Positions 5,697 to 51,534 of a DNA stretch of 51,534 nucleotides are shown piece by piece. The notes beneath the pieces were generated by a model. That model saw only the letters and a list, made by a program, of their open reading frames with translations. It was not told the DNA's origin and made no database searches. The stretch lies in sequence record OQ850291. One strand, written 5' to 3'. The stretch comes from Escherichia phage vB_EcoS_ULIM2. Position 1 is the stretch's first letter; each line of letters begins with the position of its first letter. Position numbers and translations under genes: made by a program.

Positions 5697-6479
5697 ATGA
5701 GAGAAAACAAAAAACTGTATGATGAAGAAAGCGGAAAGAGCCTGTTTCATAACTGCCTGCAATCACTGTATCCTGGAGAGATAATCACTCTGATCGAAGT
5801 GGATGGCAGCAAGTTCGGCGCTCAAGTGTACCGATTCCACGGGGAGAATATCCAGTACACTCCAGAAGAAATAATGCAGGCCCAGCAAACAGGAACACTG
5901 CCGCCGAAAGAAATTACATTCCGTGGCGAGCAATATGGGGCGAGGCCGTTCGGTATATCCGGTATCTCGTTCGACAGTTCCGGCAAGGCGACTAAACCAC
6001 AGTTGACAGTGGCAAATATTGATAGCAGAGTGTCGGCAATGATTCGCGCATATAACGGATTGATGCAGGCGAAGGTGACAATCTGGATCACTCAAAAGGA
6101 CTTAATTCAACCTGACGGCTCAATCGCTGATGGAGCTTACCGTAAACTGGTATACTATATCGAACGCCCGAGCTATGTCGATAAGAGTGTCGCTCGTTTC
6201 GATCTCACGTCTCCGTATGATATGGATGGCATCATGATACCATCTCGACTAACGCAAAGCGTTTGCTATTTTGCACAAAGAGGATGGTATAAAACCGGGA
6301 AAGGGTGCGGATACAACGGGCAAAATGGTTACTTCGATAAAGACAATAATCCTGTAGAAGATCCCGCGCTCGACTTCTGCCCGGGAACGGTAACTGCCTG
6401 CCGCCTGCGGTTCGGTGCAAACAATGAATTGGATTTTGGCGGCTGTGCTGTCGCTTCACTACAGAGGAAAAATCAATGA
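5697..6479 (+). CDS. Minor tail protein (lambda L-like, 260 aa)
   Basis: Synteny M-L-K-I-J; Cys-rich C-terminal region; ATG at 5697 with AGAGGA RBS (track ORF starts at TTG 5640 inside the terminator). Confidence 0.6.
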   Translation: MRENKKLYDEESGKSLFHNCLQSLYPGEIITLIEVDGSKFGAQVYRFHGENIQYTPEEIMQAQQTGTLPPKEITFRGEQYGARPFGISGISFDSSGKATKPQLTVANIDSRVSAMIRAYNGLMQAKVTIWITQKDLIQPDGSIADGAYRKLVYYIERPSYVDKSVARFDLTSPYDMDGIMIPSRLTQSVCYFAQRGWYKTGKGCGYNGQNGYFDKDNNPVEDPALDFCPGTVTACRLRFGANNELDFGGCAVASLQRKNQ

Positions 6480-7210: not shown

Positions 7211-7806
7211 ATGATGTAAAAGTAATCAAGTTATCCGGTTCGCTTGGTAGGCGCTTCGGTGTCTTTCACCGCTTTGCTGTTGACTCTTACCCGGAAGCCA
7301 TTCGTGCACTATCCAGTCAGGTAGATGGATTTAAAGAATACATGCAAAGCGAGGTAGGATCGCGCAGCAAGTTTGCAATATTTGTGGATGGCGTTAACGT
7401 GGGCCACCATGAAGAGGAAAAATTCAAGTGCGCGAAAGAGATAAGAATCGTACCGATACCTACTGGCTCTAAGACAGGAGGTCTATTCCAGGTTGTATTG
7501 GGCGCGGCAATAATGGTTGCAGCATTCTATACTGGCGGCGCGTCTCTGGCTTTAATGGGTACAATGTCCTCGTCTCTGTTTATGATGGGCGGCGCTATGG
7601 TGCTGGGCGGCGTGGTGCAGATGATTTCACCGCAGCCGGGTGGCGCAAACTTTGAAGTTCAATCAAGCAAGAATAAACCTTCGTACGCGTTCGGCGGTGC
7701 TGTCAATACGACGGCGGCGGGATACCCTCTCCCGGTCCCGTATGGATATCGCGCCGGAGGTGGCGCAACTTTCTCAGCAGGTTCTTATGCCGAGGATATG
7801 AGTTAA
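7207..7806 (+). CDS. Tail assembly protein (lambda I-like, 199 aa)
   Basis: Position between K-like and J-like genes; Gly/Ala-rich hydrophobic C-terminal half. Confidence 0.55.
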   Translation: MNDVKVIKLSGSLGRRFGVFHRFAVDSYPEAIRALSSQVDGFKEYMQSEVGSRSKFAIFVDGVNVGHHEEEKFKCAKEIRIVPIPTGSKTGGLFQVVLGAAIMVAAFYTGGASLALMGTMSSSLFMMGGAMVLGGVVQMISPQPGGANFEVQSSKNKPSYAFGGAVNTTAAGYPLPVPYGYRAGGGATFSAGSYAEDMS

Positions 7807-7812
7807 AATTAA

Positions 7813-7835
7813 CCCGCCTTGCGCGGGTTTTTTTT
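7813..7835 (+). terminator. Terminator hairpin before the tail tip gene (same sequence as at 5634)
   Basis: CCCGC-cttgc-GCGGG followed by 8 T; followed by TATAAT at 7842-7847 and a TAGCAC half-box at 7863-7868. Confidence 0.55.
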
Positions 7836-7883
7836 CGCCTGTATAATGAGTCCACCGATAAATAGCACAAAAAGGTAAACATC

Positions 7884-10800
7884 ATGATTCAAAAAGTGAT
7901 AAGCGGATCTAAAGGTGGGTCACAGAAGCCTCATAACCCAGTTGAGATGGAAGACAATCTAATCTCAATCAACAAAATCAAGATCCTGTTGGCTGTATCT
8001 GATGGTGAAATTGACGAAACATTCAACCTAAAGCAGTTGATGTTTAACTCAGTTCCGGTGCAAAACGAGGATGGATCGTTCAACTTCGAAGGGGTAAAGG
8101 CTGAATTCAGGCCGGGAACTCAGACGCAGGAATACATCAAGGGAATGGAAGATAGCTCTAGTGAGGTAACTGTAAATCGTGAGGTTACTACCGATAACCC
8201 ATACACGATCTCAGTAACCAACAAAACGCTGTCGGCAATCCGTATCAAGATGTTCATGCCTCGCGGCGTACGAATTGAAAGTAACGGTGATAAAAATGGC
8301 GTAAGAGTTGAGTATGAGGTGCAACAAGCTGTTGATGGCGGCTCGTTTGAGACGGTGCTCACCGATGTAATCGAAGGCAAAACAATGTCAGGTTACGATC
8401 GAAGCAGACGTGTAAACCTACCTAACTTCAACAATCAGGTGATATTCAGAGTGGTTCGGAAAACTCCAGACTCTAACGACTCGAACGTTGTTGACGCGAT
8501 TCAGGTAAAGAGCTATGCCGAGGTGATTGATGCTAAATTCCGTTATCCACTGACTGGTCTTCTTTTTGTCGAGTTTGATTCGAAGATGTTCCCAAACCAG
8601 TTACCTACGATCTCAATTCGTAAGCGCTGGAAGATTGTAAACGTTCCGTCAAACTATGATCCAGAATCACGAACTTATAACGGAAATTGGGATGGAACTT
8701 TTAAGAAGGCATGGACGAATAATCCGGCTTGGGTGCTTTATGACCTGATGATTAATCAGCGTTATGGACTGGATCAGAAAGAGCTTGGTATCGCTGTAGA
8801 CAAATGGGCGCTCTATGAGGCGGCGCAATATTGCGACCAGATGGTCCCTGACGGTAAAGGCGGCACTGAGCCTCGCTACCTTTGCGACGTGATAATTCAG
8901 TCACAGACTGATGCGTACAAGGTGATTCGAGATATTTGCTCAATCTTCCGTGGAATGAGCTTTTGGAATGGTGAAAGCATTTCGGTAATCATCGACAGGC
9001 CGCGTGAACCTGCGTACATCTTCACTAATGACAACGTGGTTAATGGTGACTTCTCCTACACGTTCGCAAGCGAAAAGAGCATGTACACGACGTGTAATGT
9101 GATGTTTGATGATGAACAGAACATGTATCAGCAGGACGTTGAGCCAGTATTCGATCGTGAGGCTACTCTACGGTTTGGTAACAACGTAACGAGCATTACA
9201 GCGATCGGTTGCACACGTCGAAGCGAGGCAAACCGACGCGGGAGGTGGATTCTGAAAACTAACCTCCGCAGCACTACGGTAAACTTCGCTACCGGACTTG
9301 AGGGCATGATCCCGACAATCGGAGATGTTGTGGCAATAGCTGATAATTTCTGGTCAAGTAACTTAACGATGAACCTGTCAGGGCGTTTGCTCGAAGTATC
9401 CGGTAGTCAGATTTTCCTGCCGTTCCGCGTTGATGCTCGCGCAGGTGACTTTATCATCTTAAATAAGCCCGATGGCAAGCCTGTGAAGCGCACAATCTCA
9501 AGTGTTAGTGCGGATGGTAAGACTATAGAGGTTAACATCGGCTTTGGCTTTCCTGTGAAGCCTAACACGGTATTTGCAATCGACCGTACCGACATTGCGT
9601 TGCAGCAGTACGTCGTGACCAAAATCGACAAGGGTGATGATGATGAGGAGTTTACCTACAAGATTACGGCGGTTGAGTACGATCCTAACAAGTATGATGA
9701 GATTGATTACGGAGTTAACATCGACGACCGACCGACGAGCATTGTTGAACCAAATCAGATACCTAGACCGGAAAATGTGCAAGTGTCCTCAGAGTCGAGA
9801 ATCGTTCAGGGGATGAGCGTAGAAACGATGATTGTTAGCTGGGATAAAGTGCCGTACGCAGTTTTCTATGACGTCCAGTGGCGAAAGGATAACGGCAACT
9901 GGCAAAATGTACCGCAGACGGCAAATAAAGAGGTATACGTTGAAGGTATTTACGCTGGCAACTATCAGGTTCGCGTTCGCTCTGTCGCTGGTTCCGGTAC
10001 GACTTCAGGATGGTCAAATATCGTAGCTGCGACGCTGACGGGTAAACAAGGTGAGCCGGGCCGACCGATTAACCTTACAGCTACGGATGATGTTGTTTTT
10101 GGTATCCGTACAAAATGGGGGTTCTCTGATGGTTCTGGAGATACGGCCTATACAGAGTTGCAACAGTCACCGGATGGAACAGTGGATAACGCAAGTTTGC
10201 TTTCTTTGATTCCGTACCCGCAGCATGAGTATTATCACTCACCGATGCCTGGAGGGAATATCGTGTGGTATCGGGTAAGGACGGTTGATAGGATCGGTAA
10301 CGTGTCTCAGTGGACTGATTTTGTCAGAGGTATGGCATCAACAAACGTTGACGATATCATTGGAGAGATTTCTGTCGATATCGAAAACTCGCCGGGTTAC
10401 GAGTGGCTTGTTGATAACGCAACCGACAACGCGGCGCAGAACGCAGCGAACGCAGAGGCAGCAATTGAGAACGCGCTAGCCAATGACAAAGACGCGATCT
10501 ACATGAAGAAGGAGAACGGAAAGCGAAAAGCTGAGTACACGAAATCACTTAAACTTATTGCTGATGAGACGCAGGCGCGAGTGACGTCGATCGAGCAATT
10601 GAAGGCAAGTTTTGGAGATCAGATTAGCGCGAGCAATAGTGAATTGCGCGAGGTTATCGCAACCGAGACTGAGGCACTATCTCGTGAGATTGACCAGCTT
10701 AAGGCTCAGATTGGAGACGATATTCAGGCAAGTTTAACAGATATCCGCAAGGCTATAGCAAACGAGACTGAGGCTAGAACGCAAGCTGATCTTACTTTGA

Positions 10801-19288: not shown

Positions 19289-19301
19289 CTTGATTCTCCT
19301 A

Positions 19302-26558: not shown

Positions 26559-26601
26559 AATATACCCGATACGAGATCGGGTGTTTTAACAAAAAGTGCT
26601 A
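26559..26601 (-). promoter_or_regulatory. Box-type promoter (leftward)
   Basis: Minus strand TAGCAC-N4-TGTTA (26587-26601), 22 bp, TATATT (26559-26564) inside inverted repeat CCCGAT/ATCGGG. Confidence 0.5.
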
Positions 26602-26710
26602 TTTGTATCTTTTGACATGGAGAAGCAACTCCCCCTCCTGGTCGCAAAGATTATGCTCTCTGTCGCCGTTGGCCCTCATTGAAGTGAGCAGCAGACTCAA
26701 CAATCCTTGT

Positions 26711-27118
26711 TCAAATTCCTCTTTCGTAAGCTGGAGTCTTGCGCACAATTCGACGTTCCGATCTATCAATGTTTCTACGTTCGCCAAACAATTCTTCATC
26801 ACTCATTTCTCCAATGTGCATCATCTCCCACGTATACCGATTGTTGTAGCCATCAATACACATCAGCTTCATCATTACCGGGCGTTTGATCTTTCCCTTG
26901 CACCAGTAAAATCCATCCTTGCAATCAAGATACCCCTCAGTTACACAGCGTGAGCAAAACTCCTTAGATAGCGCACTTGTAAATTCACGGCGAGTCATCC
27001 CGGCGGCCTTAGCAAATCGCTCACTTTCCTTGTGGGCGTATATAAATTTCGCTATGTGCTGCCGAGTGTATTTGTCGTAACCTTCGCAGAACCGGAACAG
27101 ATCTAAAAGAAGAAGCAT
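26711..27118 (-). CDS. Hypothetical Cys-rich protein, possible zinc ribbon (135 aa)
   Basis: First ATG at 27118 just after the upstream stop; CSRC ... CKDGFYWC Cys pairs. Confidence 0.45.
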   Translation of the reverse strand: MLLLLDLFRFCEGYDKYTRQHIAKFIYAHKESERFAKAAGMTRREFTSALSKEFCSRCVTEGYLDCKDGFYWCKGKIKRPVMMKLMCIDGYNNRYTWEMMHIGEMSDEELFGERRNIDRSERRIVRKTPAYERGI

Positions 27119-27122
27119 ATTA

Positions 27123-28691
27123 TTAACCAATCAGTCGAGGATTGATGAAAACAATATCATCAATTCGGCAAGTGTAGTTCATCTCTTCGAGCGTTATAAG
27201 AAGGCTGTCGATTCTCTCAGCGACCTTCTGTTGCCCGTTGAACGGAGTAACGTTACGACACTTCGCTACAATGCTATGAATCGGTGCGCGGCCTTTGTTC
27301 TTCTTCGCGATCTCAGTGATAACATCAATCAGCTTACGAGATTCAGCCTCATCACCAGCATACCCGGCAGCGCTGGCAGACGACAGATAAGTCCTGGAAA
27401 GCTCATTGAAGATCATGATCGCTTCCTGCATTGTTTCAAGGTCAATCTCGCGATTTGCGCGGTTCGGTGATTCACCCTCCCAATTCTTGATCGTGTGAAG
27501 AACTGAAGCAATACGCAATGCGTGCTTATCGAACTTACCGAGATGACCGCGAAGCATTGAGTGAGAGTATTTCCCCCCAGCGGCGAAATCCGGTTCCATC
27601 GCCTGTCGTGCAAGGTTTAATTCACGCATAGCGTTACGGCTTACAGAGAGAACAACGTTATCCTCCTTCATGATGTTATGCACGAGTCTGTAATATTTGC
27701 TAACCAGTCCGCGATCGACTTCTTTATACAGTGCATCACCATTTTCATCACAAAGAATACGAGTACCTAAAAGCGGTTCCTCACGAACCAGAAGGAAGCG
27801 CTCAGATACACCGATACCGCGCTGGCCTGCGTCCATGATACCCTTGATTGTTTCATCCTGCGCAATGACGCAGATCGAACCGACCGGACACAGAGACAAG
27901 TTATTATCCTGGTTGGAACGCGCGACCTCCATATGGTTTTTATCCCAAGCCTTAAGGATAAGCTCACTGTTAGATTTCTTATCTGAGCCGCCATACGTAA
28001 GCCCGAGCAATGTATTGATTGCCGTTGCCTCGTCAGATATTACGGAAAAGTGACCTTGCACTGCCGCCACTTTCGCAAGACCTTCAGGTGTAGGATCTGA
28101 TACCGCGAAAACAATATCAGCCATCTTCTTGATCTTCTCTTCCAGTTTTTCTTTGTCCTCGTACAGAGCCGCCGTCGTGTTGCCTTTAGGATCGTTTTTT
28201 ATTTCCTTCTCGACCTGACGTAGCTGACTGGTTAAACGGATGCGTTCCTTTTTACGCTCTTCATTCAGTCGCTGAATCTCCGCACGCATAGGTGTAATCG
28301 CCGCTGAGTTAATCGCTGATTTACCTGTTGATGGTGGCTGACTGATTACCATGTAAAGCGCTGTCGGCTGTTCTTCTCCATGATATTGCACCCAAAACTT
28401 CCCGAGCATCGCGGCTGAGATGCAACCGATAAAATGAGCATACGCGGATGAAACCGGGAACTGGACTGATTCAGCTTTTGCTTTTGCATATTCGAATACC
28501 AGGTTATCGCCACCTAACGAAATCAGAGGGAACTTATCGTTTCCGCTGTTGATATCGATCGGATCTTGCCAAAAAGAAACTGAATCCCCATAACTGTTTT
28601 CACGAATTGCGATCGCCACCGGATTAACTCCAGTGCTATTTGCGATCTCAATAATCTGTTGGTAATTCAGTTTTGGCTTAATATTAAACAT
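27123..28691 (-). CDS. P-loop ATPase, possibly DUF3987-like replication-associated protein (522 aa)
   Basis: Walker A-like QPPSTGKSA and Walker B-like FSVISDEAT; ATG at 28691 with AAGGAG RBS. Family assignment is from memory. Confidence 0.45.
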   Translation of the reverse strand: MFNIKPKLNYQQIIEIANSTGVNPVAIAIRENSYGDSVSFWQDPIDINSGNDKFPLISLGGDNLVFEYAKAKAESVQFPVSSAYAHFIGCISAAMLGKFWVQYHGEEQPTALYMVISQPPSTGKSAINSAAITPMRAEIQRLNEERKKERIRLTSQLRQVEKEIKNDPKGNTTAALYEDKEKLEEKIKKMADIVFAVSDPTPEGLAKVAAVQGHFSVISDEATAINTLLGLTYGGSDKKSNSELILKAWDKNHMEVARSNQDNNLSLCPVGSICVIAQDETIKGIMDAGQRGIGVSERFLLVREEPLLGTRILCDENGDALYKEVDRGLVSKYYRLVHNIMKEDNVVLSVSRNAMRELNLARQAMEPDFAAGGKYSHSMLRGHLGKFDKHALRIASVLHTIKNWEGESPNRANREIDLETMQEAIMIFNELSRTYLSSASAAGYAGDEAESRKLIDVITEIAKKNKGRAPIHSIVAKCRNVTPFNGQQKVAERIDSLLITLEEMNYTCRIDDIVFINPRLIG

Positions 28692-28720
28692 CACAATAAA
28701 CTCCTTAGTTGACGGTGTGA

Positions 28721-28763
28721 ATGATACACCGCCAATGGTACACGCGTTTTGCAAAAAGTGCTA
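28721..28763 (-). promoter_or_regulatory. Box-type promoter (leftward) for the ATPase gene
   Basis: Minus strand TAGCAC-N3-TTGCAA (28749-28763), 22 bp, TATCAT (28721-28726). Confidence 0.45.
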
Positions 28764-28767
28764 TTGG

Positions 28768-29184
28768 TTATAAGTATTTGGCCTCAAAGGTTGTGCCGTC
28801 AGCAATACTAAAACCCACCTCTTCGCGGAATAAGGTCCAGCGGCAACCATCCTCATCAAAGATGTAACCAGCCACTCCACCGAGAGCGCGACCGCTTTCC
28901 ACCTGGTAGCGTTTGCCAACTTTGAATGATTTTTTCATTGGGTTGCGATGGTCAAGCCCGGTGCATTTTAGTGTCTTCGTTTTCAGTTCTACGAATGTTG
29001 CATTAAGCGGATTACCCAATGAGTCTTCACCATGTGCGGTCATTTTATCAAGCACATGCCAATGCTTAGGCGCGAACTGAACTGAGATATTACCCCCATC
29101 GTCTATGCGTCCTTTATAAAGTTTGTTTGCTTCAAAGAATAATTTCATGGTGGATGAGGTGCATTTGAGTTTGATACTTTTCAT
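28768..29184 (-). CDS. Hypothetical protein (138 aa)
   Basis: ATG at 29184 preceded by the conserved AACCAATCAGGAGA leader. Confidence 0.5.
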   Translation of the reverse strand: MKSIKLKCTSSTMKLFFEANKLYKGRIDDGGNISVQFAPKHWHVLDKMTAHGEDSLGNPLNATFVELKTKTLKCTGLDHRNPMKKSFKVGKRYQVESGRALGGVAGYIFDEDGCRWTLFREEVGFSIADGTTFEAKYL

Positions 29185-29263
29185 TGAATATCTCCTGATT
29201 GGTTATCTTGAACAAGGCCACTTTAACAAATGACCTTGCGGCAATATTAACAAATCGTGCTAT

Positions 29264-29476
29264 TTACCACGGGATATAATCGTCGTCTAAATCTTCGTTT
29301 TTTGGTTCTTCTGGTAATTCAAAGTCAGGATCAAACTCACTTTCTTCGTCCATATTCATATCACCCAAAGCCTCTTCAAGCGTTATTTCTTTATACGCTA
29401 CCTTGATACACCATTCAGCACTAAGACCAGCATCAAGAGCGCCAAAATAACGAGTCCAGAAATTATCCCGTTCCAT
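29264..29476 (-). CDS. Small highly acidic protein with SSB-tail-like C-terminus (70 aa)
   Basis: ATG at 29476 with GGAG 9 nt upstream, coupled to the upstream gene; C-terminal 35 residues are rich in D/E and end DDDYIPW. Confidence 0.5.
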   Translation of the reverse strand: MERDNFWTRYFGALDAGLSAEWCIKVAYKEITLEEALGDMNMDEESEFDPDFELPEEPKNEDLDDDYIPW

Positions 29477-29480
29477 TAAA

Positions 29481-29705
29481 TTAACTCCATGAATTAATGT
29501 AAATTGAGTTAGCCTCAAGAGTAGCGCGCACATCCGCATCTGTTGCATTTACTAAGCGCGAGCCTGGCGTGCTGCCAATAACGTTATTACCGTTACGAAC
29601 CTTAGTTACCGTCATTGAAACAAAACCGGAAGACTTATCCATTTTGATAACTACACGTCCTTTCGCGTTCAGGTGCTTGATGATATTCTCAGCTTTAATG
29701 CTCAT
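29481..29705 (-). CDS. Hypothetical basic protein (74 aa)
   Basis: ATG at 29705 with AAGGAA RBS downstream of a box-type promoter. Confidence 0.5.
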   Translation of the reverse strand: MSIKAENIIKHLNAKGRVVIKMDKSSGFVSMTVTKVRNGNNVIGSTPGSRLVNATDADVRATLEANSIYINSWS

Positions 29706-29738
29706 TTTTAATTCCTTTATTTCGTTTGGTGTAGGAGT

Positions 29739-29782
29739 AATATACCTTACTCCATATTTATTGTCTTTAGCAATTAGTGCTA
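29739..29782 (-). promoter_or_regulatory. Box-type promoter (leftward)
   Basis: Minus strand TAGCAC-N3-TTGCTA (29768-29782), then TATATT (29739-29744) within inverted repeat GGAGTA/TACTCC. Confidence 0.45.
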
Positions 29783-29922
29783 TCAGTACTCGGAAATTAC
29801 TTTACACTCTTTGATTGTTCCACCTAGAACTACTTTCTGCATCATTGCTTTTTGGTGGCTATCGTAAACGCGAACATTTTTTACGCTGTTAAATTTGCCA
29901 GTATAGAAAGTGTGAATATAAA

Positions 29923-30246
29923 TCATTTTTTACCGTCCCAGGTTTGATACGCCGTTACAAGGTTAATGCTATGGTCGAACTCGTCAATGCTAAGCGATCC
30001 GATTCGAACCAGTTCTTTGTCATGCTTGATATCAATCATCCGACTGTACGGATGGCCTGGCACGTATTTGAACAGTCGTTTGCTGTCGGCAATATCAGCG
30101 TTTATTCCGTAGAATCGGCCCACCGCCGCCTTAACGCGCTCCATGATGTTTTTTTCGTGGATTGCTGCCGCGTTATTCAGTGCGACTACCGTACTTCCGT
30201 TAATCTTCGGTGATTTCGTTGTGATTTTGTAAGTGTGGTTCATCAT
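29923..30246 (-). CDS. Hypothetical protein (107 aa)
   Basis: Tandem ATG ATG at 30246 preceded by AGGGGG RBS just after the upstream stop. Confidence 0.45.
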   Translation of the reverse strand: MMNHTYKITTKSPKINGSTVVALNNAAAIHEKNIMERVKAAVGRFYGINADIADSKRLFKYVPGHPYSRMIDIKHDKELVRIGSLSIDEFDHSINLVTAYQTWDGKK

Positions 30247-30259
30247 TCCCCCTAACCAG

Positions 30260-30460
30260 TCAGGATAGATTTCGCGCTTCATCAATGATAACAGGCTCAA
30301 GGCGTTCAAGTCGAACGCGGAACGAGTTCATAAATCCTTCGTTGTTCCTCAGTAGTTCGAATGCGTCTGTAGCTTCAATTGCGCTATTTCCCATGTAGGC
30401 AACTACGCTCTTTTGCGTCTTGCGTGAGATCGCCACAACGCGGTAAATATTATCACTCAT
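30260..30460 (-). CDS. Hypothetical protein (66 aa)
   Basis: ATG at 30460 overlaps the upstream gene's stop by 8 nt. Confidence 0.4.
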   Translation of the reverse strand: MSDNIYRVVAISRKTQKSVVAYMGNSAIEATDAFELLRNNEGFMNSFRVRLERLEPVIIDEARNLS

Positions 30461-30824
30461 ACAATGCCTCCTTGACTCGATCCGCAATGCGGGAGTTGAC
30501 GGTGATTGAGTAGTTAGCCACGCCCCATAATGCAATATTGCCAAGCTCGGTACGCATAGATGGATTGTTAAGTTGAATGATTGTCTCGCCAGTATCGTCA
30601 TCTACGAAACGAGACACGCCAAAACGGTCCACCACGCGCGTTACACGGTTCACGCACTCCATTGCATCACTTACGCCGTAATAAGCGCTCAGAGCGGCTC
30701 TCACGGCCTTCTCTTGCTTGTTGTAAATCTTGCGCGCGATGTTCTCGATCGCCACGCTTTCTTTCTCGTCAGTCTGGATTGCAGTGCTGGCTGAAAAGTC
30801 CAGATCTGTGAACTGATTAAACAT
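30453..30824 (-). CDS. Hypothetical protein (123 aa)
   Basis: ATG at 30824 preceded by leader CCATCAACAGCGAGCGAGGAAAG and a box-type promoter. Confidence 0.5.
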   Translation of the reverse strand: MFNQFTDLDFSASTAIQTDEKESVAIENIARKIYNKQEKAVRAALSAYYGVSDAMECVNRVTRVVDRFGVSRFVDDDTGETIIQLNNPSMRTELGNIALWGVANYSITVNSRIADRVKEALYE

Positions 30825-30855
30825 GATTCTTTCCTCGCTCGCTGTTGATGGGGTG

Positions 30856-30898
30856 ACTATACCAGCCATCCCGGATGCGCGTTTAGCAAAAAGTGCTA
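30856..30898 (-). promoter_or_regulatory. Box-type promoter (leftward)
   Basis: Minus strand TAGCAC-N3-TTGCTA (30884-30898), 22 bp, TATAGT (30856-30861). Confidence 0.5.
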
Positions 30899-31060
30899 TT
30901 CGATAACTTCCTTTGGAACGACCTTGATCTCATCAAAGAAGTTAGTCCTGTCATTCTCAGTGAGATTCTTGATCTCGTTAGCTTTGCTCTCGGTCGAGCA
31001 TATCTCGATCAGTTCGTCACCTTCATAGTAGATTGCTCCCACCACGCAATATACGATCAT
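30896..31060 (-). CDS. Hypothetical protein (54 aa)
   Basis: ATG at 31060 with AGGAG RBS; start uncertain because the predicted -10 of the box at 31085-31099 would overlap it. Confidence 0.35.
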   Translation of the reverse strand: MIVYCVVGAIYYEGDELIEICSTESKANEIKNLTENDRTNFFDEIKVVPKEVIE

Positions 31061-31102
31061 AAACTTTTCTCCTGGGTTAGTTATTAACAAAAAGTGCTAT
31101 AC

Positions 31103-31207
31103 TCAGCGACCAACTGCATCCATAATGATTAAGAACATGATCGCGACCAGGCATCCTGACAGAGAGAAAAGCACCGATCCCATTGCATAATTAAAAAACT
31201 TTGTCAT
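31103..31207 (-). CDS. Small hydrophobic membrane peptide (34 aa), not in the ORF track
   Basis: ATG at 31207 five nt after AGGTGG; translation MTKFFNYAMGSVLFSLSGCLVAIMFLIIMDAVGR; coupled to the upstream gene. Confidence 0.45.
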   Translation of the reverse strand: MTKFFNYAMGSVLFSLSGCLVAIMFLIIMDAVGR

Positions 31208-31209
31208 AA

Positions 31210-31440
31210 TTACCACCTGAAACTATCGATAGTGTCATTAATGTACTTCACCTGGGCCTCTACGTCGGACGTGGCAATGTACTGGAAAGTGTCGTAATCT
31301 TCCCAAAGGTCGACAATCTCAACCTTAGTATGATGCTCTTTCAAGCCTCCCATGTGACCATAATGCGTACGGTAGACGATGAATCCCTCATTACTTGCTC
31401 GCTGGATTGCTTTCTTTAAACCTGGGTGCTTTATTGCCAT
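31210..31440 (-). CDS. Hypothetical protein (76 aa)
   Basis: ATG at 31440 preceded by the AACCAATCAGGAGAA leader. Confidence 0.5.
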   Translation of the reverse strand: MAIKHPGLKKAIQRASNEGFIVYRTHYGHMGGLKEHHTKVEIVDLWEDYDTFQYIATSDVEAQVKYINDTIDSFRW

Positions 31441-31471
31441 CCTGTCATTCTCCTGATTGGTTGATGTGTTC

Positions 31472-31514
31472 ACTATACCCCGATTCCCTTCGGGGAGTTT
31501 AGCAATTCGTGCTA
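31472..31514 (-). promoter_or_regulatory. Box-type promoter (leftward)
   Basis: Minus strand TAGCAC-N3-TTGCTA (31500-31514), 22 bp, TATAGT (31472-31477) within inverted repeat CCCCGAAGGG/AATCGGGG. Confidence 0.5.
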
Positions 31515-31850
31515 TTAAGCAATGTCGAACTCAGCGGCATATGCTTCCTTGATGCCAGCTTCACGCATGGTGCGCTTGCTGATTTTGCGCGGGAATTTGT
31601 ACTGACTGTTAGGCATAACCCACCAGAAGCAGGCAGTTTCACGAACGATTTCATATTTACCGTAACGGGTGAATATATCGCGTTCTGAATCCGGCTGATT
31701 AACACAGGTCAGGAATTTAGCTGCCTTGTCTTCAGTTTTGATTTCTTCCCATACGAAAGAATCCATACCGTTAACATTGCAAGCTACCATGATGTACTCA
31801 ACGCCGTTTTCGATTTTGATGATTTCGTTACCGCGATTTTCGTATTTCAT
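31515..31850 (-). CDS. Hypothetical protein (111 aa)
   Basis: ATG at 31850 preceded by CAGGAGCAGGAAA RBS region and leader CATCGAAACGAG. Confidence 0.5.
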   Translation of the reverse strand: MKYENRGNEIIKIENGVEYIMVACNVNGMDSFVWEEIKTEDKAAKFLTCVNQPDSERDIFTRYGKYEIVRETACFWWVMPNSQYKFPRKISKRTMREAGIKEAYAAEFDIA

Positions 31851-31888
31851 TTTCCTGCTCCTGATGTTTATCTCGTTTCGATGAAGTA

Positions 31889-31931
31889 ATAATACCCCAT
31901 CGTGAGATCTGGCGTTTAGCAATTCGTGCTA
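31889..31931 (-). promoter_or_regulatory. Box-type promoter (leftward)
   Basis: Minus strand TAGCAC-N3-TTGCTA (31917-31931), 22 bp, TATTAT (31889-31894). Confidence 0.5.
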
Positions 31932-31932
31932 T

Positions 31933-32019
31933 TTAACCCATCCTTTCAATTACAAGGAGCATTACCCAAACCGCTAAGACTAACTGCATCATCATAGCTA
32001 ACAAAAAGAACTTATTCAT
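31933..32019 (-). CDS. Small hydrophobic membrane peptide (28 aa), not in the ORF track
   Basis: ATG overlaps the TGA of the upstream gene (ATGA); GAGGAA RBS 7 nt upstream; translation MNKFFLLAMMMQLVLAVWVMLLVIERMG. Confidence 0.4.
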   Translation of the reverse strand: MNKFFLLAMMMQLVLAVWVMLLVIERMG

Positions 32020-32831
32020 ACTGATTCCTCACTGGCGAATACCTCGCAAGATTCACTGCATGAGCCTGTGTCGAATGATTTTGCCCCACGAACCCTTGCG
32101 GCTACCTCATCCCTCGACTGTGGAAACATCTGTATAATGTCACCGAGTGAGCGCCTTCCTCTGTACATGTCAGATGAAGACTCTTTCTTGTTGTGCTCAC
32201 TGATTGTGTTAATGAATAGCCTTGCAAGCTCCGGCTCATCCTTACAAGCAAGAGCTAGCTTGAGTTCTGACTTCTTGATGCAGAAAACGCAGTTACCAAG
32301 GTGTTCATCAATCCCAAGATCGAAAGGCATGTCACGCCAGAAGTTGATAACGTCCTGCTTATCAAAGTCAGATATGTCTGCAAGGTAACTGAACCCATCA
32401 GCTGCCTTTAATCTCTTTGGCTCATCCGCACGAATGCCAATCCATCGCTGATAATTACCCTTGCCATACTTCTTCTCGCAATACTTTTCAAATGGCTTAG
32501 TCTTCATCCTGTTTGTACAGAATGCACCTCCCTGGTATGGATTTCCGTACTTCCTTAGCATTCTTATCCACCCAACAAGATCGTGATGAATATCGTCCAC
32601 GCTTACAACTTCGAATGATGGGGTTCCGCGGAACTTATCGCTTGGCAAGCATCTTAAGCAAGTTATACCCCTGGGAATCATTGACGATACATTTCGAATA
32701 AACTCATAAGTCATTGGATGTTCTGCGCCAGTGTCCATGTAAATAACCTCAGCGTCAGGATAAATCTTGAGAACCTCAAGTGTCATGTATGCCGAAGTCC
32801 TGCCACCACTAAAACTAATTACCTGATTCAT
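32016..32831 (-). CDS. PP-loop ATPase of the PAPS-reductase-like family (271 aa)
   Basis: N-terminal ISFSGGRTSAYM PP-loop (SGGxxS) motif; ATG at 32831 with AGGGG RBS; the track ORF (to 32900) runs through its promoter. Confidence 0.55.
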   Translation of the reverse strand: MNQVISFSGGRTSAYMTLEVLKIYPDAEVIYMDTGAEHPMTYEFIRNVSSMIPRGITCLRCLPSDKFRGTPSFEVVSVDDIHHDLVGWIRMLRKYGNPYQGGAFCTNRMKTKPFEKYCEKKYGKGNYQRWIGIRADEPKRLKAADGFSYLADISDFDKQDVINFWRDMPFDLGIDEHLGNCVFCIKKSELKLALACKDEPELARLFINTISEHNKKESSSDMYRGRRSLGDIIQMFPQSRDEVAARVRGAKSFDTGSCSESCEVFASEESV

Positions 32832-32865
32832 TTCGACCCCTATCTGTGAGCTAAATAACAACTGC

Positions 32866-32909
32866 ATAATAGCCAATCCTCCGCTACTGGTCGTTAGCAA
32901 AAAATGCTA
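32866..32909 (-). promoter_or_regulatory. Box-type promoter (leftward) for the PP-loop gene
   Basis: Minus strand TAGCAT-N4-TTGCTA (32895-32909), 23 bp, TATTAT (32866-32871). Confidence 0.45.
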
Positions 32910-33099
32910 TTCCAATAATTGCTCATTATTCCATCAATTGTGGAATATGTGGAATAATTCTGATTGTTATTGATTGCGAATGACGAAACGTGATTATTGC
33001 ATGATGTGCAACAGTTGGTTGATTTGTTGATGAGAACGCAATGATTGTTAGAGGGAGGATCTGGTGTTGCCCGGCTCGCCTGGTAGTCATCTCCATTTT

Positions 33100-33114
33100 T
33101 AGCAAAAAGTGCTA
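33100..33114 (-). promoter_or_regulatory. Second palindromic box upstream of the PP-loop gene, no obvious -10
   Basis: TAGCAC-N3-TTGCTA on the minus strand; the position 22 bp downstream is not -10-like. Confidence 0.35.
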
Positions 33115-33391
33115 TCGATTACGATTATGCTTGATTGTGTGTTAATCCATGTATATGATTTGCATAAATCGCAATCGTAGACAAAATTACACCAAATTAC
33201 GCCCTATAATATACATATAGATATATGTATATATATAATATATAAGTGTTTTTTTATTTATATATATAGATACTATTATTTGTAATATGGCTGTATAGCG
33301 TGTCTACTATGTTAATCGTTGGATGCTCTGGTTATGATATTCATGTTTATATATACAGTAGTTTTATCGGCTCATATTTATATGGGAAAAG

Positions 33392-33418
33392 CGATTAACA
33401 CGATTAACACGATTAACC
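33392..33418. repeat. Three tandem copies of a 9-bp unit (CGATTAACA)
   Basis: CGATTAACA CGATTAACA CGATTAACC read directly, inside the AT-rich divergent region. Confidence 0.6.
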
Positions 33419-33442
33419 ACACTTAAAATCGGCTCGCGAGCA

Positions 33443-33494
33443 TTGACACAAGCGGGTCGCCGTGTAACACTACGATTAGAGACACAGTGTTACA
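33443..33494 (+). promoter_or_regulatory. Candidate rightward promoter with operator-like inverted repeat
   Basis: TTGACA at 33443-33448; perfect inverted repeat TGTAACACT (33463-33471) / AGTGTTACA (33486-33494); the -10 is weak (TAACAC), so the promoter call is tentative. Confidence 0.35.
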
Positions 33495-40924: not shown

Positions 40925-41154
40925 TGTTCGGTTTAAGCGAAGCGGAGTGGAATGTGGTAAAGCGTGCCGCGAAAGAATTAAACAAATTCGTTAGCGGAAT
41001 GAAGAAAGAAGATCGAAAAAACGACAAGATTATGATTGACGTAATATCGACTCACCACAAAAAGGTCGAGCTACTCATCGACCGCTACAAATTTGTCTGG
41101 ACTGCCGGGTATATTGCAGGGCGCGTAGGAAACAAAGAAGGGGATTACGAATAA
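40924..41154 (+). CDS. Hypothetical protein (76 aa)
   Basis: Overlapping stop/start with neighbours. Confidence 0.5.
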   Translation: MFGLSEAEWNVVKRAAKELNKFVSGMKKEDRKNDKIMIDVISTHHKKVELLIDRYKFVWTAGYIAGRVGNKEGDYE

Positions 41155-41357
41155 TGGCTAATTTACCGAAGAAAGGCGATCAGGTTCGGTGTGTCACCTC
41201 ACGCAATGGCGATGCTTTCTCAGCCGGGTGCGCGTACGACGTAGAAAAGGTTAGTAAATCAAAGAGACTTGTATTCGTGTACGGGGATGATGGAAATCTG
41301 CATGAGATTGACTACCCGCAGGATGTAACTAATGGTCAATTCGAAATTAATGATTGA
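41154..41357 (+). CDS. Hypothetical protein (67 aa)
   Basis: TAATG overlap with the upstream gene. Confidence 0.5.
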   Translation: MANLPKKGDQVRCVTSRNGDAFSAGCAYDVEKVSKSKRLVFVYGDDGNLHEIDYPQDVTNGQFEIND

Positions 41358-41522
41358 CCTACGTCACTGAGCGGTGATAGTATTAATCCCGTAGACAGAC
41401 GAGGCGCAATTAAGCGCAACGCGTGAGACGACTCTCACACTTCCAGCTAACAAGCTCGGTTGCATAGTGGTTAAGCAACGCCGCAGACCCGTAAGCGGCA
41501 ACAATTTAAAGAGGATTGCATA
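41358..41522 (+). other. GC-rich structured noncoding element with short palindromes and repeated motifs
   Basis: Palindromes GCGCAATTAAGCGC (41404-41417), GTGAGA-cgac-TCTCAC (41423-41438), GTTGC-N11-GCAAC (41459-41479), CCGC-N10-GCGG (41481-41498); repeated TTAAGC..CAAC at 41409, 41471, 41491; no ORF or promoter box. Confidence 0.4.
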
Positions 41523-41684
41523 ATGCAAAACACTAAAGACGAATCAGTTAAAATTGAAATTAAAGTAACTCGCAACGGTGAAACCACTCGTTATAAAAAA
41601 CGATTAAATCTTGGCGAGGCTGTTATTGGTCGCATTGCTGGCGTTATGATTAAGGCGCAGGAAGATGAAGCGATTCAAAGTTAA
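41523..41684 (+). CDS. Small protein (53 aa), not in the ORF track
   Basis: ATG 8 nt after AAGAGG. Confidence 0.35.
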   Translation: MQNTKDESVKIEIKVTRNGETTRYKKRLNLGEAVIGRIAGVMIKAQEDEAIQS

Positions 41685-41850
41685 ATTAATTATTCGAAAG
41701 ATGGGAATGTTTTGCCAGTCGTGCAAGCAATCTTTCGAAGCTGAATTATCAGCAACCAGTCAGGCAGAAGCCATCATGAAAGCAAAAAAACTTTCCGGCG
41801 CTAACCTTGACACTCACAAAATAAATATTGAATTAATCAAGGAGATTTAA
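41665..41850 (+). CDS. Hypothetical small protein (61 aa), start uncertain
   Basis: ORF-track ORF; overlaps the previous small ORF in another frame. Confidence 0.35.
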   Translation: MKRFKVKLIIRKMGMFCQSCKQSFEAELSATSQAEAIMKAKKLSGANLDTHKINIELIKEI

Positions 41851-41851
41851 C

Positions 41852-42079
41852 ATGACCATTTTTTTATTGATTATCGCTGGTATCGTTATTTTTGGTGCTG
41901 GTTTGTTTGCTGGGTTCGCACTTGTTGCGGCAGCGATTGCGATGGACGCGAAGGATAAAACTGGTGTATGGCTGACCTACTCACCTAAGAAGGACCAATG
42001 GGAAATGATTGGCGACCTTGCTCACTGCTACTCTAAAGCCAAGACCCACCCTAAAGGCATTAAACGACGATTATCGTGA
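41852..42079 (+). CDS. Small membrane protein (75 aa)
   Basis: AAGGAG RBS; N-terminal hydrophobic stretch IFLLIIAGIVIFGAGLFAGFALVAAAIA. Confidence 0.5.
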   Translation: MTIFLLIIAGIVIFGAGLFAGFALVAAAIAMDAKDKTGVWLTYSPKKDQWEMIGDLAHCYSKAKTHPKGIKRRLS

Positions 42080-42088
42080 TAAATACTA

Positions 42089-42109
42089 ACCCGCTTCGGC
42101 GGGTTTTTT
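42089..42109 (+). terminator. Rho-independent terminator before the packaging module
   Basis: CCCGC-ttcg-GCGGG followed by 7 T. Confidence 0.6.
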
Positions 42110-42122
42110 TATGTCTGCAATA

Positions 42123-42146
42123 TGGTAAAATAGCACTAAATGTTAA
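42123..42146 (+). promoter_or_regulatory. Late promoter candidate with the palindromic box downstream of the -10
   Basis: TGgTAAAAT at 42123-42131 followed immediately by TAGCAC-N4-TGTTA (42131-42146); TerS ATG at 42164. Confidence 0.4.
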
Positions 42147-42163
42147 ACAAAGAGGATGGATTT

Positions 42164-51142: not shown

Positions 51143-51513
51143 TGAACTACTCACAGATTGAAAGGATGGCTCGCAAAGGCGTTGCTTTCTTCACCGATCC
51201 GTCAAGACCTATGAACCTGATAAAACAAGGTGAATACGGATATGATGAAAACGGATTTGAGATCCCACCAATGGAACAGGTTATTCCAATATCCGGCGCG
51301 ACGCGAAGACCTAACGCGCGTGAGATTGACGGTGAAACTATCCGCGCCTCAGATATTTTGGGGATCTTCAATAATGATCATGAAATAAACGAAGGTGACT
51401 ATATAGAGATTGATGGCATTCGTCATGTTGTCGTTGATGCTCGCCCGGTTCAGGCGTCACTGGAACCAATCGCCTATCGTCCAGTATTGCGGAGGGTATC
51501 AGTAGGTGGCTAA
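51142..51513 (+). CDS. Putative head-tail adaptor protein (123 aa), crosses the repeat junction
   Basis: ATG at 51142 with GGAGG RBS; its last 106 nt lie inside the terminal repeat and are duplicated at positions 1-106. Confidence 0.4.
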   Translation: MNYSQIERMARKGVAFFTDPSRPMNLIKQGEYGYDENGFEIPPMEQVIPISGATRRPNAREIDGETIRASDILGIFNNDHEINEGDYIEIDGIRHVVVDARPVQASLEPIAYRPVLRRVSVGG

Positions 51514-51534
51514 TTATCAAATTCGTAGATTTCA

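Follow-up and report, generated by a model that had tools for sequence, protein, structure and literature searches.

The window analysed here is the whole 51,534-nucleotide sequence of Escherichia phage vB_EcoS_ULIM2 (OQ850291), a T1-like coliphage of the genus Tunavirus. In a tight array of genes it contains a 165-bp gap (positions 41358–41522) between two small open reading frames (ORFs), ORF58 and ORF57, and we conclude that this gap very probably holds a host-type promoter together with a transcribed, structured RNA of about 113 nucleotides (nt; 41391–41503) that is kept throughout the Drexlerviridae. The gap has a conserved promoter motif, is under purifying selection and encodes four conserved helices on an identifiable folding strand; the element occurs in single copy and is restricted to Drexlerviridae. 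An earlier reading of the same letters (hereafter, the original prediction) had offered a packaging-recognition region, a structured noncoding RNA or a protein-binding array as candidates for this gap. The second of these is borne out by a promoter directly upstream, compensatory helices over 12 or more genera and a strand-specific excess of G·U pairs. As judged from sequence comparison, the element appears to combine a promoter with a structured leader or small RNA, found family-wide and not described before. The literature that we searched held no account of it, though the T1 genome paper may hold a promoter prediction there.

Promoter motif and sequence conservation

The original prediction saw no promoter box; however, a predicted sigma-70-type promoter with both −35 and −10 elements, TTGACC-18 nt-TGaTAGTAT, lies at 41354–41383 on the + strand (as do all features described below unless stated otherwise) and is conserved in every relative examined. 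Its −35 hexamer TTGACC (41354–41359) overlaps the TGA stop codon of ORF58 and is separated by an 18-nt spacer from the extended −10 element TGa-TAGTAT (41375–41383), for which diversity within Tunavirus is 0.000. Within the spacer stands the conserved motif CTGAGCGG (41367–41374; family consensus CTGAnnGG), which could be a protein site. On the basis of promoter geometry, the predicted transcript would start at G41391, 7 nt past the −10 box, and would open with the conserved single-stranded 5′ motif GUAGACAGACGAG (41391–41403; family consensus GUA(G/A)ACnnA(A/C)GAG). Neither the spacer motif nor the 5′ motif has a second copy elsewhere in the window, and no other promoter of this type is present there.

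We examined the promoter at 16 loci of relatives, which were reached via protein homology or accession and so were not selected by a DNA motif. They cover Tunavirus, Sertoctavirus, Vilniusvirus, Nouzillyvirus, Eclunavirus, Rtpvirus, another member of the Braunvirinae, Tlsvirus, Warwickvirus, Wilsonroadvirus and Jhansiroadvirus. A −35/−10 pair at 17–18-nt spacing is present at all 16 loci, over 12 or more genera. The −35 element reads TTGAC(N) at 15 of them (TTGCAT in Rtp), the −10 element reads TAnnnT at every one and is preceded by TGn at 12, and the end of the −10 box lies 6–7 nt from the G of GUARAC throughout.

The gap corresponds to positions 7591–7754 of T1 (AY216660). A 701-bp query around it matched 64 phage records at 85–96% identity, all of them T1-like phages of Escherichia or Shigella, and about 62 Tunavirus records share 90–97% identity over the 165 bp of the gap itself. 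In a set of 17 distinct Tunavirus sequences, the nucleotide diversity of the gap is 0.049, against 0.014–0.065 at codon positions 1 and 2 and 0.16–0.26 at position 3 of the flanking genes in the same sequences. The gap is thus about as diverse as positions that determine amino acids and is therefore not neutral spacer. Within Tunavirus the promoter spacer (in its 5′ part) and the HP1 loop carry most of the variation, whereas the −10 box is invariant.

Compensatory changes in four hairpins

The element comprises four hairpins (HP1–HP4, 41404–41499), and the same four appear in the minimum-energy fold of the predicted window transcript. HP1 (41404–41417; GCGC-AAUUAA-GCGC) is followed by a conserved AAC(G) (41418–41421) and by HP2 (41423–41438; GUGAGA-CGAC-UCUCAC). 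A linker (41439–41458), whose length in the different genera lies between 12 and about 150 nt, ends in a conserved UCGG (41456–41459) and holds a mini-hairpin that is found in Tunavirus only (AGCU-AACA-AGCU, 41445–41455). HP3 (41459–41479; GUUGC-AUAGUGGUUAA-GCAAC) adjoins HP4 (41480–41499; GCCGC-AGACCCGUAA-GCGGC), the loop of which has a family-invariant 3′ end, CGUAA. The 3′ tail AACAAUUU (41500–41522; family consensus A(A/C)C(C/A)AUUC) runs on to the Shine–Dalgarno sequence of ORF57, AAGAGGA (41509–41515).

Two alignments were used to evaluate the pairing. The first (A4) is a structure-blind MAFFT alignment of the 5′ module from 17 lineages and is gap-free across HP2. In A4, 91.8% of cells are paired and nine of ten pairs show compensatory changes (4/4 in HP1 and 5/6 in HP2); there are 37 double-change cells, compared with 11.5 ± 3.0 in shuffles (none of 500 reached the observed count), and sliding the 3′ partners gave at most 9. 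For the second, a covariance model (R1) was built from nine sequences of Tunavirus, Sertoctavirus, locus L051 and Vilniusvirus, and 34 long-form elements (29 distinct) were aligned to it (A3). Here pairing holds in 95.5% of cells, and compensatory changes affect 16 of 20 pairs, including 6/6 in HP2, 5/5 in HP3 (89% of cells paired) and 3/5 in HP4 (99% paired). The 105 double-change cells stand against 31 ± 4.8 in shuffles (again reached by none of 500) and at most 13 in slid controls. Compensatory changes that exceed both the shuffled and the slid controls identify a conserved RNA secondary structure, and RNAalifold on its own recovers three of the four helices (HP1, HP2 and HP4).

The stems change sequence freely while remaining paired. 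HP1 occurs as GCGC/GCGC, CCAC/GUGG, GCGG/CCGC, CCCG/CGGG and GCUC/GAGC; HP2 variants include GCAGCA/UGCUGC, GCAUC/GAUGC, GCCAG/CUGGC, GCGG/CCGC and GCCCC/GGGGC; and HP3 is found as UUGC/GCAA, GGGC/GCCC, GUGC/GCAC, UUGG/CCAA, CUAU/AUAG and UCGAG/CUCGA. Eight forms of HP4 were seen: GCCGC/GCGGC, GCCGU/ACGGC, GCGGG/CCCGC, GUGGG/CCCAC, GCCGG/CCGGC, GGGGG/CCCCC, GCUGG/CCAGC and CCCGG/CCGGG. Pairs of the G·U type outnumber A·C pairs by 10:1 in A4 and 25:5 in A3, and this excess indicates that the folding molecule is the + strand, which is the strand that the promoter would transcribe. Two further pairings were considered and dropped: a helix in the short forms between GUAGAC at the 5′ end and GUCU after HP1 (seen in one minimum-energy fold), because variants with GCCU or GUCG are uncompensated; and a CGG/CCG pseudoknot between UCGG and the HP4 loop, because the loop varies (UCG, GCG) without compensation.

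Features that can be read from a single sequence have a different standing. The gap was described as GC-rich, yet its GC content is 50%, hardly enriched over the 46% of the window. Instead of at least four perfect palindromes, we count three of 6 bp (ATTAAT at 41382, ACGCGT at 41419 and TTTAAA at 41505) and none of 8 bp, which is no cluster: dinucleotide shuffles give 2.97 ± 1.7 (P = 0.57), and when the window is cut into 165-nt tiles, 25% of them have as many. Perfect hairpins of at least 5 bp are weakly enriched (4 versus 1.4 in shuffles, P = 0.09). A word of the form TTAAGC..CAAC was reported three times; the looser TAAGC(N0–3)AAC does occur at 41411, 41472 and 41492, but the strict TTAAGC occurs only twice, the third copy being GTAAGC. 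These copies are the 3′ halves of HP1, HP3 and HP4, and share a loop that ends in UAA, a G–C stem closure and a following AAC; as hairpin halves, they do not support an array of protein-binding sites. The signal is visible only by comparing relatives and consists of low diversity and compensatory changes of stems.

Distribution across the Drexlerviridae

The covariance model has a single match in the window (41391–41503, 119.5 bits) and one match per locus elsewhere. It matches Rtp, LL5, TLS, Sd1, tiwna and Vc1, none of which was in the seed, and E-values in genera outside the seed range from 1e-5 to 1e-12. A DNA pattern composed of the promoter and the 5′ motif retrieved 69 IMG/VR loci, one per contig, that form 15 sequence clusters; complete contigs among them are 43–53 kb in length. 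No copy turned up when 185,579 genomes of bacteria and archaea were scanned with two patterns. A 45–50-nt core of the gap also matches Vilniusvirus phages at 87–88% identity, directly 5′ of a gene for transfer RNA (tRNA)-Ser(GCU) and at the same genomic position. An IMG/VR scan with an exact 18-mer from the HP4 region gave three additional loci (L026, L028 and L035), which were discarded as chance matches in unrelated contexts.

Gaps of distant relatives were taken 3′ of the ORF58 homologue or 5′ of the ORF56 homologue in Sertoctavirus, a Braunvirinae phage, Eclunavirus, Nouzillyvirus, SXFY507, Rtp, Tlsvirus (LL5 and TLS), Wilsonroadvirus Sd1, Warwickvirus tiwna and Jhansiroadvirus Vc1. All share the 5′ part of a common layout: the −35/−10 pair, 6–7 nt, GUA(G/A)ACnnA(A/C)GAGGC, HP1, AAC(G) and HP2. 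The 3′ part of this layout consists of a variable linker, (A)AUCGG, HP3, HP4 with a loop ending in CGUAA, and the tail A(A/C)C(C/A)AUUC. A short form, in which the 5′ motif, HP1 and a GC-rich HP2 are followed by a U-rich tract, occurs in Webervirus-like clusters and in SXFY507; the Webervirus-like examples are 55–60 nt in length and comprise a single-stranded 5′ end, one hairpin, a GC-rich terminator hairpin and a U-tail. In L049/L066 and tiwna, HP1 and HP2 are followed by a long stem and then by U residues (four to six in L049/L066, six in tiwna). In Sd1 (NC_047847, L102 533–588 and 599–723) the 5′ module seems to be partially duplicated, in the order promoter, GUAGAC, hairpin, HP2-like hairpin, the 5′-motif-like GUAAAGAUACGAGGC, and then the HP3/HP4 module.

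The 3′ end of the element is of three types. In five lineages it is a tRNA gene, 5–32 nt behind the element, with one or two tRNAs each: Ser-GCU in Vilniusvirus, Arg-UCU in ESCO41 (yet no tRNA in its congener 50EP) and in Rtp, Arg-CCU in AN_ECEAS, and Trp plus Arg-CCU in Sd1. In three lineages (tiwna, L049/L066 and the Webervirus-like short forms) it is an intrinsic terminator, with stem and U-tract immediately 5′ of the first ribosome-binding site. In the window it is the ribosome-binding site itself: HP4 is followed by AACAAUUUAAAG, without a U-tract, so that the intrinsic terminator of an attenuator is absent here and present in the terminator-ended relatives. Among relatives, anything from about 10 nt to more than 200 nt separates the element from the first ribosome-binding site, with the element intact.

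Some of these tRNA genes are unannotated. ARAGORN calls a tRNA-Arg(TCT) just behind the element in Rtp (NC_007603, L100 607–683) and a tRNA-Arg(CCT) in the same place in AN_ECEAS (PP944860, L040 1887–1962). In ESCO41 (NC_047820, L042 1973–2032) a second tRNA-like sequence 3′ of the tRNA-Arg(TCT) combines a well-formed acceptor stem and T-arm with a middle part that is too large; it scores 26 bits on the Rfam tRNA model (threshold 29) and is not called by ARAGORN. In HazelMika (OL539457, L020 1577–1834) the annotated coding sequence HAZELMIKA_86 overlaps the tRNA-Ser gene, and its start codon is probably miscalled.

Proposed transcription unit behind the promoter

Three small genes follow the promoter: ORF57 (41523–41684), ORF56 (41665–41850) and ORF55 (41852–42079), the last of which encodes a membrane protein. 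Just 5′ of the small terminase gene, an intrinsic terminator (42088–42112), annotated in T1 as a rho-independent terminator, closes the unit. ORF58 (41154–41357) and ORF57, which flank the gap, are both small and tightly packed, and in the curated T1 record the sole annotation in the gap between them is a ribosome-binding site. The neighbouring small proteins match PHROGs 4927, 6666, 2919 and 5976, with functions not assigned. An inverted repeat, TTGCAT-A-ATGCAA (41516–41528), spans the start codon of ORF57, and the AUG would fall inside such a hairpin.

Homologues of ORF56 occur in 789 phage records in GenBank. The protein, 61 amino acids in length, carries a GMxCxxC motif like that of heavy-metal-associated (HMA) domains and resembles such domains in copper ATPases (PDB 7si3, E = 1e-6; the Pfam HMA match is under the cutoff). 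In two Klebsiella phage records a homologue is labelled ‘bacterial RNA polymerase inhibitor’, a label that could not be substantiated.

Between the terminator and the small terminase gene lies a copy (42130–42147) of the repeat ATAGCACnnnTTGnTAAA, which is present 33 times in the window at up to three mismatches, compared with 5.7 expected. Copies are oriented with local transcription: on the + strand, for example, at 19301, 21810, 34447, 35186, 37465, 38822, 40319 and 42130, and on the − strand over 26585–33115. This repeat is the TLS-type 21-nt repeat, to which the TLS paper assigns no function (PMC11447400); it may be the phage’s own type of promoter or enhancer.

Proposed role of the RNA

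In the mechanism that we propose, host sigma-70 RNA polymerase would bind the promoter and initiate at about G41391. The first 113 nt or so would be left untranslated and would fold co-transcriptionally to present the 5′ 13-mer, HP1–HP4, the AAC and UCGG joints and the CGUAA loop. Transcription would then continue through ORF57, ORF56 and ORF55 and end at the terminator that precedes the terminase genes. The folded RNA would be the selected product, a stable leader or small RNA that binds a protein or RNA partner by means of its conserved unpaired motifs; situated at the 5′ end of the operon mRNA, it may also set the amount of transcription that reaches the downstream genes. In the phage of the window the RNA would stay the 5′ leader of the mRNA unless a host RNase excises it. 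RNase P cleaves at the 5′ ends of tRNAs, and in the tRNA-bearing lineages such cleavage would free the element as a separate RNA. Promoter firing, the exact start, the stability of the RNA and the function of the element are what we infer from the comparisons.

That the RNA itself is the functional unit, as a stable leader or small RNA with a partner, is the explanation that we tentatively put first, with slightly less than even confidence. Because the element is intact despite its varying distance to the first gene, selection appears to act on the RNA itself rather than on its relation to a start codon, which speaks against sequestration of the ribosome-binding site as its role.

It is less likely that the element is a leader that acts only in cis, either as an attenuator or antiterminator (comparable to the HK022 put RNA or to lambda PR′ with tR′ under Q, both described below) or as the binding site of a phage protein that autoregulates ORF57–ORF55. 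In every genus the element lies directly 3′ of the promoter and 5′ of conserved small genes; cis-regulatory leaders typically pair a conserved 5′ domain with a 3′ end that varies; and the terminator at 42088–42112 lies between the unit and the terminase genes. A terminator also stands between the 5′ module and the first ribosome-binding site in tiwna, L049/L066 and the Webervirus-like forms, and since there is no room for a second promoter past these terminators, downstream expression there needs read-through. However, inspection by eye of the terminator-bearing relatives revealed no antiterminator pairing with the terminator stems, the distance to the ribosome-binding site is not conserved, and no Q-like or N-like protein was identified. 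In five lineages tRNA genes intervene between the element and the ORFs, where RNase P would sever a tether of the HK022 put type, and a separate repeat (42130–42147) precedes the small terminase gene, so the late genes need not use this promoter. A role in trans or as a stable RNA and a role in cis are not mutually exclusive; we favour the former and rank the latter second.

Several points weigh against a promoter with a conserved, functional RNA. Single-sequence folding barely beats shuffles (z of about −1.4 to −2.1), A3 is fitted to the structure of its own model, HP3 is poorly aligned in distant genera, and many of the sequences are closely related, so that counts of cells overstate the number of independent events. 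As there is no terminator 5′ of the promoter, the element will also be present in read-through transcripts, and the promoter may add little. The RNA of the window has neither a 3′ terminator nor a tRNA behind it, and a discrete small RNA would need RNase cleavage. No partner or target was found, and the reverse complement of the 5′ motif has no above-chance match in the phage. We also found no transcriptome or transcription-start study of any Drexlerviridae phage in the literature.

A more far-reaching version of the stable-RNA explanation, which we consider unlikely, is that the element represents a new, Drexlerviridae-specific class of regulatory RNA that is made early from a host-type promoter and whose invariant unpaired motifs (5′ GUAGACnnAAGAGG, AAC, UCGG and the CGUAA of the loop) engage some machinery of the host or the phage. 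The RNA might, for example, modify RNA polymerase and so allow it to pass the numerous intrinsic terminators by which the T1 genome is divided into short units, or it might sequester a host protein that binds RNA or serves in defence. In such a case, tRNA genes would preferentially land in the slot that follows the element.

Comparison with known phage systems

The likenesses set out here are general resemblances; the sole computed comparison was a search of Rfam 15 (4227 models), which gave no match in the whole window at gathering thresholds and none in 41358–41522 at E-values of up to 10. In NBD2 and ESCO41, tRNAs were the sole Rfam matches. A weak match to the RT-2 model (14 bits) lies inside the coding sequence of ORF57 and was dismissed as chance.

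The put RNAs of coliphage HK022 (putL and putR) are cis-acting, promoter-proximal antiterminator RNAs with two stems, for which we know of no Rfam model. Like them, the element is phage-encoded and untranslated, lies just 3′ of a host-type promoter and upstream of intrinsic terminators, and consists of short stem-loops in which pairing matters over sequence. Unlike them, it has two to four stems and a conserved 13-nt single-stranded 5′ end, and the tRNA genes that intervene in five lineages would sever the tether.

The tRNA cluster of T4 includes small stable RNAs (species 1 and 2, RNA C and RNA D) that are co-transcribed with tRNAs and released by processing. The element resembles these RNAs in being phage-encoded, small, structured and, in five lineages, directly 5′ of tRNA genes. 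It differs in that the window and all Tunavirus genomes have no tRNA and in that the element is always promoter-proximal. The T4 small stable RNAs were not among the Rfam matches obtained here.

At the late promoter PR′ of lambda, a short 6S RNA leader and the terminator tR′ are under the control of the antiterminator Q. Like lambdoid PR′, which is strong and constitutive, the predicted promoter here is of the sigma-70 type and has a conserved element between −35 and −10. Its transcript would likewise be short and structured, a terminator close to the promoter is present in some lineages, and the morphogenesis genes begin just downstream. In contrast to PR′, its initial GTAGAC contains no −10-like TAnnnT pause signal and no Q homologue was found; the leader in the window lacks a terminator, and the terminase gene has its own upstream repeat element. 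The Webervirus-like short forms are reminiscent of enterobacterial Hfq-type small RNAs, with a 5′ seed, a hairpin and a rho-independent terminator, but the search for a target gave none, and in Tunavirus the element lacks a terminator and continues into the mRNA.

Packaging site, tRNA remnant, origin and antisense gene

The gap lies 642 bp upstream of the small terminase gene (42140/42164–42688; PHROG 606, Pfam GP3_package), in agreement with the 640 bp or so of the original prediction. A packaging-recognition (pac) site would require that the small terminase binds the repeated words or palindromes of the gap as duplex DNA and that a headful series starts there. In P22, Sf6 and SPP1, pac is in or beside the small terminase gene; like the pac sites of these phages and of P1, the gap is near that gene and has short repeated words (TAAGC..AAC three times), and its region is conserved. 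Set against this is where the DNA ends lie in relatives. A T1 record annotates a 2.8-kb terminal repeat (1–2800), and T1 position 1 corresponds to about 32997 of the window, 8.4 kb upstream of the gap. For TLS, pac was placed at record position 1 by means of a submolar fragment mapped by restriction digests of virion DNA (PMC11447400). The TLS record begins with the assigned AGATTT, and its HindIII site at 5876 (the sole one in the first 10.5 kb) and EcoRV site at 2733 agree with that paper; the TLS homologue of the element, at 7824–7930, is far from this end. The paper on SU57 likewise puts the end in the corresponding region at the left (PMC7718038).

In their own records, the T1 and TLS ends are 7.6–7.8 kb away from the element (equivalent to 8.4 kb in the window). 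Stem sequences that change while pairing is kept, with G·U far above A·C, are the signature of an RNA fold and not of a protein site on duplex DNA; what is conserved is the RNA pairing and not the duplex sequence, and the palindromes are no commoner than expected by chance. Packaging starts 7.6–8.4 kb upstream of the element in T1 (annotated) and TLS (mapped), and a pac site in the gap is largely refuted as far as these relatives are concerned; we regard it as highly improbable. The original prediction had named packaging from elsewhere and a lack of conservation among relatives as signs that would count against it: the former holds for T1 and TLS, whereas the latter does not, the gap being strongly conserved.

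The sequence around T1 coordinate 1 (window 32900–33460) is AT-rich (GC content of about 0.41), lies between divergently oriented genes and shows a change in the sign of GC skew; it includes a long TATATA-type tract (33205–33275) and three CACGATTAA repeats (33389–33417). These features suggest that it is a better place than the gap to seek pac or an origin. A cluster of GATT(G/T) at the equivalent of the T1 left end was tried as a pac candidate and is not above background. Positions 1–127 of the window are identical to 51408–51534, as would be expected if the genome is circular or terminally redundant and the assembly overlaps itself; if so, the unique length would be 51,407 bp.

There is very little probability that the gap is a leftover of a tRNA cluster or a tRNA-like element in which HP3 and HP4 approximate a D-arm and an anticodon arm. 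The same slot does hold tRNA genes in Vilniusvirus, ESCO41, Rtp, AN_ECEAS and Sd1, and by eye the geometry of HP3/HP4 (a stem of 4–5 bp, the loop AUAGUGGUUAA, a linker of 0–1 base and a 5-bp stem) is close to that of a tRNA 5′ half. However, ARAGORN finds no tRNA or tmRNA in the window, the Rfam tRNA model (RF00005) has no match at E-values of up to 10, and the T-arm and acceptor stem are absent. Other genera have an HP3 that does not resemble a D-arm (CUAU-GCAUGGCG-AUAG; UCGAG-AAA-CUCGA), and the loop of HP4 is 8–10 nt rather than 7. Decay is at odds with low diversity and compensatory changes, and the element is not a remnant of tRNAs because it coexists with intact ones in relatives, always upstream of them.

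Equally improbable is a transcription-primed replication origin or a single-stranded DNA hairpin element, functioning as DNA or as primer RNA. ColE1 RNA II and the promoter-associated origins of T4 and T7 are analogues, the combination of a promoter with a conserved folded transcript would fit, and we know of no replication origin for T1. Nevertheless, the gap contains no AT-rich unwinding region, a ribosome-binding site follows about 10 nt past HP4, and short forms have two hairpins only. GC skew does not turn at 41.4 kb; its switches only follow gene orientation, for example near 33 kb.

Least probable of all is a minus-strand gene, a 54-codon ORF (41364–41528, TTG start) that would explain the conservation: although a stop-free frame crosses the gap in Tunavirus and several other genera, and some GenBank records annotate a hypothetical protein there (for example, ESCO41 gp18), the open frame relative to the GAGGC anchor is 0 in Tunavirus and 1 in Nouzillyvirus, the Webervirus-like clusters, L048, L058 and L062, there is none in Sertoctavirus, Eclunavirus, Vilniusvirus, L049, L051 and L086, PHROG and Pfam give no match, the ORF is antisense to all neighbours and overlaps both the promoter and the start codon of ORF57, and substitutions are compensatory in stems without codon periodicity. 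This ORF was rejected as a gene on grounds of frame and family match and the + strand has none, in keeping with the original view that the gap holds no convincing ORF.

Biological significance

T1 is one of the seven classical T phages. The element offers a concrete handle on its gene regulation, in that it is delimited, has four covarying helices and has a predicted start at T1 position 7624; the control of T1 transcription is among the open questions of the TLS paper (PMC11447400). Drexlerviridae are very common and include many Klebsiella and E. coli phages isolated for therapy. Annotators leave the gap blank or enter a spurious antisense ORF there, and the slot behind the element is a recurrent site of tRNA insertion. 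For phage engineering, the gap is not a neutral insertion site. Should the element prove to target RNA polymerase or a factor of the host, it would represent a phage RNA of a new kind.

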